Origin: Thermoplasmata archaeon
Lineage (GTDB): Archaea; Thermoplasmatota; E2; JACPAO01; JAHFTW01
Assembly: GCA_034667725.1 (NCBI GenBank)
Contig: JAXDQS010000004.1
Location: 1 to 64,000, forward strand
Length of the DNA stretch: 64,000 nt
Direction of reading: 5' to 3'
Position 1 is the stretch's first letter; every line of letters begins with the position of its first letter. Positions 17,914 to 41,434 of the stretch are shown here, in pieces. The position numbers were made by a program, and so were the translations under genes. The notes under the pieces were generated by a model. That model did not search any database. It saw only the letters and a program-made list of their open reading frames with translations, and had not been told where the DNA came from.

Positions 17914-18606
17914 GTGTCCCGCCAGGTCGACGAGGAACGCATGTCGACGGTCCTGAAGGCGCTCGCCCACCCCGCCCGCCTCGACCTGCTGCGGCAGCTG
18001 CGCTCGCCCCGCTCCGTCGGCGAAATCCGCCTCCGCAGCCGCAAGGACGACGGCCACGGCCTGCCCGACCGCCCCATGAGCCGCGTCTCGGTGCGCGCCC
18101 ACCTCGACCAGCTCCTGGCCATCGGCGCCGTGGAGGTCCGCCGCGAAGTGCGCGACGGCCGCCTCATGGACGTCTTCGTCGTCAACGCCCGCCAGATGTT
18201 CGCCCTCACCGAGGAGCTGCGGACCTTGGGTCGCCCCGCCGCCTACGACTTCGCCGACGGCACCCTCCCCGGCGCCCCCGCCGACGCCCCCGTCCAAGCC
18301 ACCGGCACCGCGATGACCCTGGTCTCCGGCGTCCTCGAAGGCGCCTGCATCCCGCTCGCCGGCGCCGGCCCCTGGCGCATCGGCCGCGCCGCCCAATGCT
18401 CGGTCGCCATCGACTACGACCCGTACGCCTCGCTGCTGCACGCCGAAGTGCGCCGCACCCCGGCCGGCTTCGAGCTGGCCGACCTCGGCAAGGCCCGCAA
18501 CGGCACCTGGCGCAACTGGGTCGAGGTCCCGCCCGGCGGCGCGACGCCGCTGGCGACGGGCGACATCCTGCGGATTGGACACACGATCATGGTGTTCAGG
18601 GCGTAG
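17914..18606 (+). CDS. ArsR-type HTH-FHA domain fusion regulator
   Basis: LKALAHPARLDLLRQL (HTH); FHA motifs IGR, S..HAEV, NGTW, GDILRIG. Confidence 0.85.
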   Translation: MSRQVDEERMSTVLKALAHPARLDLLRQLRSPRSVGEIRLRSRKDDGHGLPDRPMSRVSVRAHLDQLLAIGAVEVRREVRDGRLMDVFVVNARQMFALTEELRTLGRPAAYDFADGTLPGAPADAPVQATGTAMTLVSGVLEGACIPLAGAGPWRIGRAAQCSVAIDYDPYASLLHAEVRRTPAGFELADLGKARNGTWRNWVEVPPGGATPLATGDILRIGHTIMVFRA

Positions 18607-18745
18607 GGAAAGGGTGCGCCGTCAGGCGCCGCCGCTGGCCGGAGGCCGCGGCGCTCGGTGCGTCGCGCCCGGAGGGACGCGACGCGCCCGGGGGTCCTAG
18701 GGGCGAAGCCCCTAGGGGTGTACCATCATGGTGTTCCGGGCGTAG
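18583..18745 (+). mobile_element. Hairpin-rich ORF-less insert duplicating the last 24 bp of the HTH-FHA gene
   Basis: Direct repeats at 18583-18606 and 18722-18745 (22/24 identical); three GNA-loop hairpins including CCTAGGGGC-GAA-GCCCCTAGG. Confidence 0.65.
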
Positions 18746-20845
18746 TCACCCTGGCAGCGCCGCCCGGAACGAGGCCGCGTCCGGGAACCGTTGCGCCGGG
18801 TCGCGCTTGAGGGCCTGCTGCAGCACCGGCAGCCAAGGCCCCAAGGACGCCGGCAGGCTGGGCCCGCGGCCGTCGGCGATGCGGTTCCGGAGCGTGAACT
18901 CGTCCGTCTCGGTGGCGTACGGCGGCCGGCCCTGGCGGCAGGCCAGCAGCACCAGGCCGACGGAGTAGAGGTCGGAGGCGCGCCGGGCGCCGCTGCCGCG
19001 CGCCTGCTCGGGGGCCATGTAGCGCAGCGTGCCGACGGTGGGCAGGTCCTGGGTGGCCTCGACCAGTTGCTTGGACGGCATGGGGGCGGAGGCGCCGAAG
19101 TCGGCCAGGAGGACGCGGCCGTCGGCGGCGAACAGGATGTTGGACGGCTTGATGTCGCGGTGCAGGAAGCCGGCGGCATGGACGGCCTCCAGGGCGGTCA
19201 GCAGGGCGGTCGCGACGGCGCGGGTCTCCTCGTGCGGCATCGGGCCGCGCTCCAGCCGGGTCGCAAGCGAGCCGCCGGGGGCGTGCTCCAGCACCAGCAT
19301 GGTCTCGCCGCCGAACACTTCGGTGCGCACCAGCCGCAGGATGTTCGGGTGCCGCAGCGACTGGAGGGCGTGGCACTCGCGCAGCATGCTGTCGCGGGTG
19401 GCGGCGTCGAGCTTGGTGGTGCGCTTGAGGACCACTTTCTGGTCGGACAGCACGTCGGCGGCGAGGAAGCAGGTGCCGGCCGTGCCCTCGCCGAGCAGCT
19501 TGACGATGCGGTAGCGGCCGCGCACCACGTCGCCGGGGGCCCAGTGCATCGACGGCGCCGACGCCCAGCGGCCTTGCACGGCCGCGGCCAGCGCCTCGTG
19601 CTGCGCCTGCGAGACGGCGCTGCTGCCGGCGGCTTGCGCGGCGGCGCGCCACGCCGCCACCGGCACTTGGCGGCGCTGCAAATCCTCCAGGATGGCGACG
19701 TAGGCCTCGACATGCGCCGGCCGCGCGTCGGCGACGCCCTGGAGGTAGGGATAGATCAGGATGGCGAAGCCGACGCCCAAGAACGCGCCGGCGCCGAGGG
19801 CCGCGACCGCCGCCGGGACGCCGGGGCCCAGGATGGCCTCGGCCAGCGGCAGGAGTGCTAGCGGCAGGAACGACGCGCTGAAGGCGGCGGTGGCCAGGCC
19901 GCGGGTGGCGGGGCGCTCCGGCGTCCACGAGAACGGCTGGTAGCGCCAGAGGGCCAGCCAGACCAGCACGGGCCGGATGAAGTAGAGGTCAAAGTTGACG
20001 AAGACCGAGGTGGCCCAGGCGCGGCTGCTGGCCGGGCCCAGCAGGGCGGTGAGCGAGACCAGCGCCTCGGCGGCGCCGGCCAGCATGAAGGCCAGCACGA
20101 AGGTGGTGGCGCGCTGCTCCTCGGAGCCTTGCTGGCGGCGGGCGCGGAACAGCCACATGAAGGCGACGGCGGCGGCGATGGCGGCCACGGCGTCCATCAG
20201 GAACGCCGCCGCGTTGCCGGCGACGAAGTAGGGCTCCGGGAAGTGGATGGGGATCCGGATGCGCTGGACGGGGGCCAGGATGGCGAGGTGGACGGCCCGC
20301 ATCGCGATGGCGGCGAACAGGAACTGGAAGAAGCTGCGCTGCACGGGCGAGGCCTCGCGCACGAACAGCCGGGACCAGCGCAGCATCAGGATCGCCCAGG
20401 TCCCCACCTGGAGGACGACCGAGAACAGCAGGCGATAGGCGGTCCCCAGCAGCGGGTCCGCCACCGGGTTCTGGCCGAGCTGCCGCGCCAACGTCACGGC
20501 GAAGAACACCGCGAACACGCCGCCCAAGAGCGCCCGGAACCGCCACGGGTGCGCCTCGACCCAGCGGGCGCGGTGCGGGAACGCCAGCGCCAGGTACAGC
20601 AGCAGCATCGAGGTGGGCGGGTCGAGCCAGTTCCGCAGCCCGTAGCCCCACGCCTCCAGCGCAGAGGAGCCGCCCACCACCAGGAGCGCCGACGCCGTCG
20701 CCAGGGCGCCGTTGAGGACGAACAGGCCCCCCAGCGCCCAGGCGTGCAGGTTGCGGCGGGCACGCGCCAGGATGCGGGCGCCCAGGGCAAGCTGGACCGC
20801 GGTGCACAACGCGTAGAAGGCCACCGTCGGGTCCCAGGCCGCCAA
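18746..20845 (-). CDS. Multi-TM membrane Ser/Thr protein kinase (Hanks type)
   Basis: About 8-9 N-terminal TM helices; GEGTAG, VVLK, HRDIKPSN, DFG, YMAPE, DLYSVG. Confidence 0.9.
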   Translation of the reverse strand: MAAWDPTVAFYALCTAVQLALGARILARARRNLHAWALGGLFVLNGALATASALLVVGGSSALEAWGYGLRNWLDPPTSMLLLYLALAFPHRARWVEAHPWRFRALLGGVFAVFFAVTLARQLGQNPVADPLLGTAYRLLFSVVLQVGTWAILMLRWSRLFVREASPVQRSFFQFLFAAIAMRAVHLAILAPVQRIRIPIHFPEPYFVAGNAAAFLMDAVAAIAAAVAFMWLFRARRQQGSEEQRATTFVLAFMLAGAAEALVSLTALLGPASSRAWATSVFVNFDLYFIRPVLVWLALWRYQPFSWTPERPATRGLATAAFSASFLPLALLPLAEAILGPGVPAAVAALGAGAFLGVGFAILIYPYLQGVADARPAHVEAYVAILEDLQRRQVPVAAWRAAAQAAGSSAVSQAQHEALAAAVQGRWASAPSMHWAPGDVVRGRYRIVKLLGEGTAGTCFLAADVLSDQKVVLKRTTKLDAATRDSMLRECHALQSLRHPNILRLVRTEVFGGETMLVLEHAPGGSLATRLERGPMPHEETRAVATALLTALEAVHAAGFLHRDIKPSNILFAADGRVLLADFGASAPMPSKQLVEATQDLPTVGTLRYMAPEQARGSGARRASDLYSVGLVLLACRQGRPPYATETDEFTLRNRIADGRGPSLPASLGPWLPVLQQALKRDPAQRFPDAASFRAALPG

Positions 20846-20877
20846 CGCGGCGCCTAGGCCCCGGTCCGCTCAAAAAG

Positions 20878-41093: not shown

Positions 41094-41101
41094 ACGGCAA
41101 C

Positions 41102-41350
41102 GGGGCAGGATTCGACCCTTCGCTCCCTCGGTCGCGCAGGGATGCCTCGCGGCTACGCCGCTCGGCGAATCCTGCCCCAGCCCGCTTCCGCCAAGGCGCC
41201 TGCTGCGCGGCGCGCTTGTGCAAGGTGCAGGGGGCAGGATTCGACCCTGCGCTCCCTTCGGTCGCGCAGGGATGCCTCGCGCCTGCGGCGCTCGGCGAAT
41301 CCTGCCCCTGCCCGTCGCGCCGCGGCGCCTTCGGCGGCCGCTGGGGCTAG
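41102..41350 (-). repeat. Two tandem structured units, each ending in a copy of the tRNA-Leu 3' end
   Basis: Units at 41102-41178 and 41231-41308, each bounded by a GGGGCAGGATTCG/CGAATCCTGCCCC inverted repeat; 19-bp exact tRNA copy at 41226-41244. Confidence 0.85.
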
Positions 41351-41434
41351 TGCAGGGGGCAGGATTCGAACCTGCGAACCACGAAGGACCAGGGCCTAAA
41401 CCTGGCGCCGTTGACCAAGCTTGGCAACCCCTGC
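41351..41434 (-). tRNA. tRNA-Leu(TAG), CCA not encoded
   Basis: GCAGGGG acceptor stem, anticodon arm CCAGG-TTTAGGC-CCTGG, long variable arm, GGTTCGAATCC T-arm. Confidence 0.95.

Follow-up and report, generated by a model that had tools for sequence, protein, structure and literature searches.

Hairpin-built, ORF-less inserts behind gene and tRNA ends of a Thermoplasmatota genome and their probable spread by homing-like tail replacement

Results

Four inserts behind gene and tRNA ends

The window, by which we mean the whole 64,000-nt stretch of archaeal DNA analysed here, harbors four short inserts, one behind an HTH-FHA gene, one at the end of a DnaQ-like exonuclease gene and two behind a tRNA-Leu gene (Table 1). 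All four lie where a preliminary description of this DNA had placed them, as do their direct repeats and the GAG loop variant of the distal tRNA unit. At the first target, the terminal 24 nt of the FHA gene recur with a spacing of 139 and an identity of 22/24, and both differences are synonymous. The intervening insert folds into four hairpins (18616-18629; 18630-18653 and 18657-18688, each with a GGA loop; and 18696-18716, with a GAA loop), and we read the convergent ORF beside the displaced tail as a putative kinase. At the second target, positions 25460-25487 are repeated at 25656-25683 (25/28 identical, spacing 196), and at the protein level this duplication amounts to 17-21 codons, which is more than 28 nt. 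Here the insert gives the DnaQ gene 24 in-frame codons and a stop at 25599-25601. The terminal grammar GGGGG-W-CCT-stem-C-GAA-G-stem-AGG-GG, to which the preliminary description had drawn attention, is present in both protein-gene inserts.

Table 1. Genes, tail copies and inserts at the three targets in the window.
Feature	Position	Strand	Basis and remarks
HTH-FHA gene, 248-aa form, target of insert 1	17860..18606	+	Pfam FHA 4.6e-11; weak HTH_20 match; database protein P0078, 248 aa
FHA tail, in-gene copy (TIMVFRA-stop)	18583..18606	+	Repeat family D1; sequence itself
Insert 1, ~110-nt E family member	18607..18721	+	Covariance-model match 18606-18717, 94 bits
FHA tail, displaced copy	18722..18745	+	Repeat and sequence; stop directly adjoins stop (18746-18748) of convergent minus-strand ORF
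DnaQ-like RNase_T exonuclease gene as now read, end inside insert 2	24777..25601	+	Pfam RNase_T 6.4e-21; ORF list
DnaQ in-gene tail	25460..25523	+	25460-25487, high-identity repeat; 25488-25523, foreign 'RAARRVLQESTL' allele type
Insert 2	25524..25655	+	Hairpins 25526-25554, 25557-25584 and 25627-25655 (GAA loop)
Displaced native DnaQ tail (KKKVRRILT type)	25656..25764	+	Decayed after about 25707
tRNA-Leu (anticodon TAG), target of inserts 3 and 4	41351..41434	-	ARAGORN; Rfam tRNA 50.6 bits
tRNA-proximal unit, 125 nt	41226..41350	-	Order: spacer hairpin (GAA loop), inverted copy of tRNA 3' end (about 41296-41308), GCA-loop hairpin, T-arm-like hairpin, echo of tRNA 3' end (41226-41257)
Distal tRNA-Leu unit, 129 nt, more decayed	41097..41225	-	GAG loop after one-base deletion; acceptor part mutated; echo about 41102-41128

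Allele types of the DnaQ tails and empty sites in relatives

The closest DnaQ relative (P0002, on contig L184) shares 86% amino acid identity with the window's protein and lacks the insert, an empty site. Identity to this relative is about 88% over the gene body but 72% over the in-gene tail, and the displaced tail is identical to the relative's functional tail at 49/59 nt, including an uninterrupted 17-nt block. Positions 10-21 of the in-gene tail match G001 at 11/12 and G002 at 10/12. The two DnaQ tails are different allele classes, which occur in different congeners, and these comparisons show an in-gene tail of foreign type (that of G001 and G002) and a displaced tail of native type (that of P0002). 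An independent second case comes from a distant relative on the metagenome contig L185, where the foreign RAARR tail seen in the window is followed by a homologous insert and then by an intact native-type tail ending in KKQVRRILTERPLVV-stop; by inspection, the gene body of L185 appears to group with G003 and G011. Remnants of the insert are found in G002 and L186. Both tails might in principle be kept coding by RNA splicing of the bulge-helix-bulge type, but the decay of the relic in the window argues against long-term selection on the second tail copy. Empty sites also exist at the FHA locus, where G009 and G019 have no insert between the FHA stop and the region of the convergent gene. DnaQ is the only locus at which the direction of import is shown; elsewhere it is presumed.

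The assembly was compared with Logan contigs from public sequencing runs. The Logan contig of the best-holding run, which is probably the source sample, covers 25449-27310 without differences. It takes in part of the in-gene DnaQ tail together with insert and echo, and so speaks against an artefact of assembly at this locus. No listed Logan piece bridges the FHA insert, and Logan contigs of four soil metagenomes break inside or at elements.

Element families and hairpin structure

Using nhmmer and a covariance model, we found 14 copies of the ~110-nt FHA insert, which we refer to as the E family, in the 2.3-Mb Thermoplasmatota genome, a 90% complete soil MAG with related strains present. Of the 15 copies or partial copies examined, 11 are abutted by a repeat of the end of the gene or tRNA upstream, and these repeats are 11-95 nt long; the copies at C5:147674, C3:368178 and C1:4691 are without one. 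The E family gave weak matches only in 4 of 40 relatives (E values 2.6e-5 to 8.6e-4), and metagenome scans yielded 0 matches and then 2 uninformative ones. Among eight aligned copies, compensatory changes affect 15/33 stem pairs, and by eye no terminal inverted repeats were seen in this alignment; a conserved U-G pair would read A-C on the opposite strand. The DnaQ insert was undetected by the E-family covariance model and looks by eye like a diverged relative of the FHA insert family.

The tRNA-Leu units form a second family, three further units of which stand behind tRNA-Leu(CAG) on contig L042. These have the same core as the units in the window, and their acceptor part and inverted copy match tRNA-Leu(CAG); a T-arm core is also common to the units and the two tRNA-Leu genes. 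Because all five relic copies carry G at tRNA position 54, this part belongs to the element and not to a former tRNA end.

The inserts measure 45-170 nt, too short for a gene, and at most loci the echo begins 0-16 nt after the end of the terminal hairpin. On the sense strand of the tail-duplicated gene, C-GNA-G triloops outnumber C-TNC-G triloops by 20 to 2. Mini-hairpins of the GCGNAGC type are exceptionally stable in DNA. GNA loops suit single-stranded DNA (PMC13037366), and the hairpins may act in this folded single-stranded form. A 25-nt hairpin of similar kind is present in intergenic repeats of many bacterial phyla, and Rfam holds no family that covers either the elements or these bacterial look-alikes.

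Tail echoes across the genome

We scanned 1,553 GC3-filtered ORFs for downstream echoes of their tails (score of at least 18) and detected one behind 21 gene tails; the control with reverse complements gave 0. The in-gene control returned 10, which we attribute to internal protein repeats. With tRNAs included, there are at least 25 targets in this one archaeal genome, and some of the flanking repeats are identical (29/29, 37/37). Across 19 loci, 34 codon differences between tail copies are synonymous and 5 are non-synonymous (87% synonymous), compared to a random expectation of 24% and a maximum of 51% in 2,000 simulations, and stop codons have been exchanged (TAG/TGA) while residues were kept. 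At the level of sequence, both tail copies show the marks of evolution under protein-level selection. Codon usage did not separate in-gene from displaced copies (16 vs 18), and the left edges of the repeats at 19 junctions revealed no conserved motif, no codon-phase preference and no TAM-like or conserved cleavage motif.

At the C3:517 kb array, a single synonymous change separates the proximal echo from the live tail, whereas the distal echo has 5 such changes and has lost its stop; at both tRNA-Leu loci, too, the distal unit is the most decayed, a picture that tandem duplication of a unit would give just as well in either setting. At a dipeptidase locus, both tail copies have a lineage-specific residue in common, so any donor must have been a very close relative, and the tails of dipeptidase homologues are too conserved for donor assignment.

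Much of the preliminary description is borne out by these results. The elements are non-autonomous, have no ORF and occur in many copies. They provide a copy of the 3' end and so keep the target gene or tRNA whole, they strike many unrelated protein genes, and they can rewrite C-termini, as at the DnaQ gene, which now reads 24 codons into its insert. The enrichment of upstream direct repeats beside the hairpins, the strand bias of the GNA loops and the empty sites in relatives, all of which it had anticipated, are likewise present, and the covariance model whose construction it had suggested recovered the 14 matches given above. Its view that structure rather than sequence is conserved proved half right, as it does not apply to the FHA insert, which belongs to a sequence family.

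Searches for an enzyme or cargo

In the 90%-complete genome, we found no match to Y1 or Rep_trans HUH enzymes (sought with two models), TnpB, RT, rve, Cas1 or Piwi (Argonaute); the models PF01797 (Y1 HUH) and PF07282 (TnpB), which had no match in this genome, did match control genomes. The single Phage_integrase match (27 bits) is a divergent tyrosine recombinase that scores 19 bits where the XerA cut-off is 220 bits; no element is linked to it. One DDE transposase, with DDE_Tnp_1_4 as its best match, lies on the 3-kb contig C23 and is not tied to the elements. No cargo-bearing version was found in the genome, and echoes 400-8,000 nt downstream of gene tails all look like neighbouring paralogues. 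We rejected a role for element and echo as a TnpB/IscB-type guide RNA, given that the genome has no PF07282 and no Piwi match and the junctions have no TAM-like motif. The papers searched contained no description of the phenomenon and did not have the hairpin sequence in a relevant context.

Discussion

Because tail copies differ almost exclusively by synonymous changes and the DnaQ gene carries a foreign tail, we favor homologous, homing-like replacement over site-specific insertion. We consider it reasonably probable that small ORF-less hairpin elements, in several related families, spread as homing-like tail replacement by homology. These mobile, hairpin-built families would comprise elements of about 45-170 nt, and the travelling unit would consist of a replacement copy of the target's 3' end together with the hairpin module. 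Such a unit would enter an element-free allele of the same gene through homology-dependent recombination, after which the gene would retain a working imported tail and the native tail, shifted downstream of the terminal hairpin, would decay there; repeated entry would build tandem arrays. Candidate triggers are a break, a template switch or an enzyme acting in trans. As no nuclease, recombinase or other driver was identified, the process would amount to 'homing' without a motor.

A MITE- or REP-like miniature transposable element, mobilised by a transposase encoded elsewhere, could also occupy many targets in many copies with fairly defined 5' and 3' ends, and would leave long, variable target-site duplications whose copies diverge in place. 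IS1634-type elements make long variable duplications, the repeats described here vary in length with some of them identical, and a DDE transposase is present on contig C23. However, we estimate that in-place duplication with a freely drifting second copy would yield about 40% synonymous differences, compared to the 87% observed, and the two DnaQ tails are allele classes of different congeners. The elements lack visible terminal inverted repeats, and the C23 transposase has no tie to them. On balance, we regard a MITE-like origin as unlikely.

A second alternative, along the lines of the preliminary description, is that of scars or minimal mobilisable forms of integrase-driven elements. In this model attL and attR are fused after cargo loss and a tyrosine recombinase acts, perhaps on a folded single strand as known from CTX phage and integron attC. 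That these are cargo-less scars of larger islands is unlikely, since one ~110-nt sequence stands at 14 places and the genome holds no cargo-bearing version. Although att sites classically lie in the 3' ends of tRNAs and genes, the target is restored and the T-arm core of the tRNA-Leu units resembles an attP core, the 14 places occupied by one sequence family are unrelated and have no common core, the repeats vary from 11 to 95 nt, and only one match to the pattern was found among 2.9 million viral contigs. The GNA loops would suit a single-stranded substrate and the genome does encode one tyrosine recombinase, but the latter falls far short of the XerA cut-off and is linked to no element, and the two HUH models gave no match. 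An integrase-driven origin is thus improbable, and homology-driven tail replacement of the kind described for WHO elements fits better than insertion by an integrase or HUH enzyme.

The position of the elements, always on the sense strand and directly after the stop codon, raises the further alternative of structured 3'-end modules that benefit the host as RNA stabilisers, terminator-like signals or processing signals, spread between alleles by ordinary recombination and produce tail duplications as by-products. Covarying stems, a U-G pair that would be A-C on the opposite strand and the similar bacterial hairpins are compatible with such modules, but the loops are GNA triloops typical of DNA mini-hairpins rather than GNRA or UUCG, and the near-constant second tail copy and the tandem arrays would be left unexplained, which makes this explanation quite improbable. 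Finally, a metagenome assembly artefact that joined two strain alleles of a gene end in tandem, as might be suspected in a soil MAG with related strains and allelic-looking copy differences, is hardly credible given that the Logan contig, albeit from a run that may be the source sample, crosses the DnaQ insert, that assemblies unrelated to this one (L185, L079, L085) show this architecture too, that most repeats are shorter than one read and that the insert itself is a real repeated sequence.

Homing-like tail replacement may have a more general form, which we put forward tentatively, as a possibility that we would not at present bet on. The elements could represent homing elements without any protein, a class spread widely through archaea and some bacteria; a stable single-stranded DNA hairpin module and the adjacent displaced tail would suffice for self-copying, with a recoded replacement tail, into element-free alleles. 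Possible routes are hairpin-induced breakage, template switching at forks, or assistance to a host enzyme in the role of guide or homology arm, and the 3' ends of essential genes and tRNAs would be continually rewritten. If homing-like tail replacement holds, gene ends could be exchanged in the manner of homing with no element-encoded nuclease, about 50-170 nt of hairpin DNA being enough at dozens of loci. Recurrent tail echoes behind archaeal genes and tRNAs, the discordant evolution of conserved genes and their altered C-termini, of which the DnaQ tail is an example, and contig breaks at gene ends in MAG assemblies would then be explained, and a testable question would be posed of host activity on GNA mini-hairpins. 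For annotation, this means that C-termini at element sites may be extended or hybrid and that pseudo-tRNA ends are to be expected there.

Comparison with known systems

Like integrative elements with att sites in the 3' ends of tRNA or protein genes and their cis-mobilisable remnants (CIMEs), the inserts restore their target with a carried 3'-end copy, are flanked by direct repeats and favor tRNA genes; those systems need a dedicated integrase and have one att core per family, whereas here one family has many unrelated targets and variable repeats, and no integrase linked to the elements was found. REP/BIME sequences, MITEs and mitochondrial GC clusters or double-hairpin elements are short, ORF-less, palindromic and multi-copy and lie directly after genes. 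The elements described here are likewise short, ORF-less, structured (four hairpins) and multi-copy (14 copies). To our knowledge, none of those systems involves a target-length tail duplication or an imported gene end, and where they duplicate their target at all, the duplication is short and of fixed length, in contrast to the flanking repeats of 11-95 nt found here. As in palindrome-associated elements derived from IS200/IS605 and in integron attC, strand-specific hairpins provide a plausible recognition structure; unlike in those systems, the direct repeats are long, and neither the Y1 HUH transposase nor the IntI that they require was found. In the sequences read, the element ends showed no evident integron R''/R' cores (RYYYAAC / GTTRRRY).

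The closest parallel is with the WHO elements of Torulaspora and Lachancea yeasts, which have the same architecture (Coughlan et al. 2020, PMC7282813). WHO elements move as a replacement 3' end of the target gene with cargo attached, as we propose here; in both, the native 3' end that was displaced persists downstream as relic and homology arm, and 3'-end allele types disagree with the gene body. Repeated entry of WHO elements builds tandem clusters with older units distal (PMC7282813), and arrays exist here at two tRNA-Leu loci and at C3:517 kb. WHO elements carry the gene for an endonuclease and mainly target FBA1 (PMC7282813), whereas the elements described here have no ORF, a hairpin cargo of 45-170 nt and at least 25 targets including tRNAs. 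Mobile ORFs of fungal mitochondria (e.g. Glomus atp6, atp9, cox2, nad3) are reported to form gene hybrids, most probably by horizontal transfer, and thereby create hybrid gene ends; they differ in having an ORF, in residing in organelle genomes and in lacking a defining hairpin module (PMC3630166). Descriptions of homing-like behaviour have so far been confined to elements with a nuclease gene of their own; here it would be the property of gene-less inserts.

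Repeated gene tails and the inserts between them

The window is contig 4 of a MAG of 2.32 Mb with 71% G+C and 90% completeness, and the names that databases give to homologues of its DnaQ are consistent with a Thermoplasmatota archaeon. The preliminary description had reported four inserts with direct repeats, and we recovered all of them in the window, at a gene whose product has an FHA domain and a weak HTH match, at a DnaQ-like gene with an RNase_T domain (both by Pfam) and twice at tRNA-Leu. The genome-wide enrichment that it had anticipated is also present: among 1,553 GC3-filtered ORFs, at a score of at least 18, 21 tails have a downstream echo, that is, a second copy 3' of the insert, versus 0 in the reverse-complement control. 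The segments between tail and echo fall into several subfamilies, which have in common GCGNAGC-type mini-hairpins, whose extraordinary stability in DNA is known (PMC13037366), and a G+C-rich terminal hairpin whose end is 0-16 nt upstream of the echo in most loci. The proposed strand bias of GNA loops was likewise borne out, with 20 C-GNA-G versus 2 C-TNC-G triloops on the sense strand of the tail-duplicated gene. We read window positions 12850-13400 as neighbouring paralogous genes rather than a hairpin element and left them out of these counts; the last 73 nt of the gene ending at 13090 reappear 236 nt downstream, within the next ORF.

Locations of repeated gene ends, repeat families and associated features
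Feature	Location	Strand	Second copy or remark	Basis
FHA gene tail	18583-18606		18722-18745	repeat comparison
DnaQ-like gene segment	25460-25487		25656-25683	repeat comparison
tRNA-Leu	41351-41434	minus	3' end repeated twice, units 125 and 129 nt	
Two-unit array	own genome (G000), contig 3, about 517,380-517,700 (L046:380-700)		3' of gene ending …YRMPIVADLALKMGL-stop	
Chimeric E-family copy	C3:550272-550376			
~75-nt repeat family	window 25779-25793	minus		
~75-nt repeat family	window 51349-51363	plus		
~75-nt repeat family, further examples	C7:17776-18150; C3:18342-18480			
Tyrosine recombinase	G000 contig 10, 27530-28006 (L013)		in long open frame	

Insert families and other repeats

The FHA insert has the terminal hairpin GGGGTCC-TAGGGGC-GAA-GCCCCTAG, of which the genome contains about 12 occurrences. 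An nhmmer profile and a covariance model of the family to which this insert belongs (the E family), both built on eight full copies, identify 14 copies in its own genome and only four matches, all weak, in 40 relatives. The family consensus comprises four hairpins, with compensatory changes in 15 of 33 pairs and one conserved U-G pair, for which the opposite strand would have A-C. Upstream direct repeats, which the preliminary description had proposed looking for beside such hairpins, abut 11 of the 15 full or partial copies that were examined; these repeats are 11-95 nt long and derive from the upstream gene or tRNA end, tRNA-Tyr and tRNA-Lys being among the targets, and a few family copies lack them.

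The tRNA-Leu units constitute a second family, to which three further units, located on contig 5 3' of tRNA-Leu(CAG), also belong. Their common core contains a T-arm-like hairpin with G at tRNA position 54, and their acceptor part and its inverted copy match the local tRNA. In the two-unit array at about 517 kb on contig 3, the terminal hairpin has a non-GNA loop (CGGCTG-GGTTCG-CAGCCG), and a single synonymous change separates the live tail from the proximal echo; between the live tail and the distal echo there are five, and the stop of the distal echo is lost. A chimeric E-family copy on the same contig ends with the 3' module of this array, which points to module exchange between subfamilies.

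Two other repeats were observed. One family, of lower G+C and with units of about 75 nt, has the core GGAATCTTCCGAATCTGAGGGAATC flanked by CACAGATTCCACAGA; the genome contains at least 84 occurrences of its 25-nt core, frequently in tandem, and a partial copy lies directly 3' of the displaced DnaQ tail. Among species-representative genomes, more than 117 stretches (loci L067-L146) contain the 25-mer GGGKTCC-N-AGGGGC-GNA-GCCCCT-N-G. They come from widely separated phyla (Streptomyces, Desulfovibrio and Nitratidesulfovibrio, Clostridia, Alphaproteobacteria, Chloroflexia and Planctomycetota), and the 25-mer usually lies within other multi-hairpin repeats and mostly lacks a tail echo. It has a flanking repeat in L085 (Acidobacteriota) and L079 (another Thermoplasmatota MAG), and Rfam holds no family for this hairpin.

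Origin of the working tails

The 19 gene-tail repeat pairs together comprise 201 codons, and their tail copies differ by 34 synonymous versus 5 non-synonymous codon changes. Random substitution gives an expectation of 24% synonymous, with 51% as the highest of 2,000 simulations, and duplication in place followed by free drift of the second copy would, by our own estimate, give about 40%. Several pairs keep their residues and exchange a TAG stop for TGA. This excess of synonymous differences, together with the stop swaps, argues that each tail copy had a history as coding sequence before the two came together; in codon usage the in-gene and displaced copies are indistinguishable.

Empty sites, which the preliminary description had expected among relatives, exist at both protein genes. 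A congener (G009) and a family member (G019) have no insert between the FHA stop and sequence with homology to the convergent gene, and DnaQ has a normal tail of 23-25 codons and no insert in the closest known relative as well as in eight congeners. In the genome under study, the in-gene DnaQ tail (…TKRAARRVLQESTL) matches those of two relatives, G001 and G002, at 11 and 10 of 12 positions, respectively, and the displaced tail (…TKKKVRRILT) matches that of G011 at 7 of 8. The insert-free DnaQ of the closest relative (P0002, 86% amino acid identity) has the C-terminus …TKRKVRRILTETVLA, and the tail of its gene shares 49 of 59 nt with the displaced copy, including an uninterrupted identical block of 17 nt. 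Identity to this relative is 72% in the in-gene tail versus about 88% in the gene body, and the switch from native to foreign sequence lies near 25488. Together, the tail allele types and nucleotide identities indicate that the working tail is the imported one and that the native tail has been displaced. The genome itself supplies the clearest evidence we obtained for an imported tail, and the direction of import is demonstrated at a single locus, DnaQ.

A second, independent case is a soil metagenome contig (L185) with a tail of the foreign RAARR type, a homologous insert that is read in frame as far as a stop of its own and, after it, an intact tail of the native type (…KKQVRRILTERPLVV-stop); by inspection, its gene body groups with G003/G011. 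Remnants of this type of insert are present in G002 and in L186. The G002 DnaQ (L019) ends …RRILQEQTLPL-RVAG-ILEERTLVA-stop, two tail copies fused in frame 4 codons apart, which looks like an insert collapsed through internal deletion. At the dipeptidase locus, a lineage-specific residue is common to both tail copies, so any donor there would be a close relative.

Mode of movement and relation to known elements

Junctions have neither a conserved target motif nor a codon phase, which favours homology over site-specific recognition, and a step through folded single-stranded DNA in element movement is plausible, given the sense-strand position of the GNA loops. Within the 90%-complete genome, we found no Y1 HUH transposase, Rep_trans, TnpB, RT, rve, Cas1 or Piwi; the recombination enzymes found were a DDE transposase on a 3-kb contig and one divergent tyrosine recombinase on contig 10, the sole match in the genome, which scores 27 bits to Phage_integrase and 19 bits to archaeal XerA versus a 220-bit cut-off.

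Integrase elements are defined by a common core, whereas the elements described here have none. MITEs have terminal inverted repeats, of which none were seen here, and a fixed target duplication, which is absent. The long repeats, together with a genome in which we found no HUH enzyme, make derivation from IS200/IS605 unlikely. The open literature searched yielded no description of such elements.

For WHO elements, which are yeast homing elements, the proposed architecture joins cargo to a replacement 3' end, keeps the displaced end as relic and homology arm, and yields arrays through repeated entry (PMC7282813). The same architecture is seen here; the mobile unit would comprise a replacement 3' end and its cargo, so that the working tail would be imported, the displaced native end would stay behind as relic and homology arm, and arrays would arise from repeated entry. 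We rate the elements as a variant of homing-type tail replacement, and there is a real chance that they represent a new, protein-less class. A nuclease is a defining feature of WHO elements, whereas the elements described here have none and carry a cargo that consists of hairpins alone.
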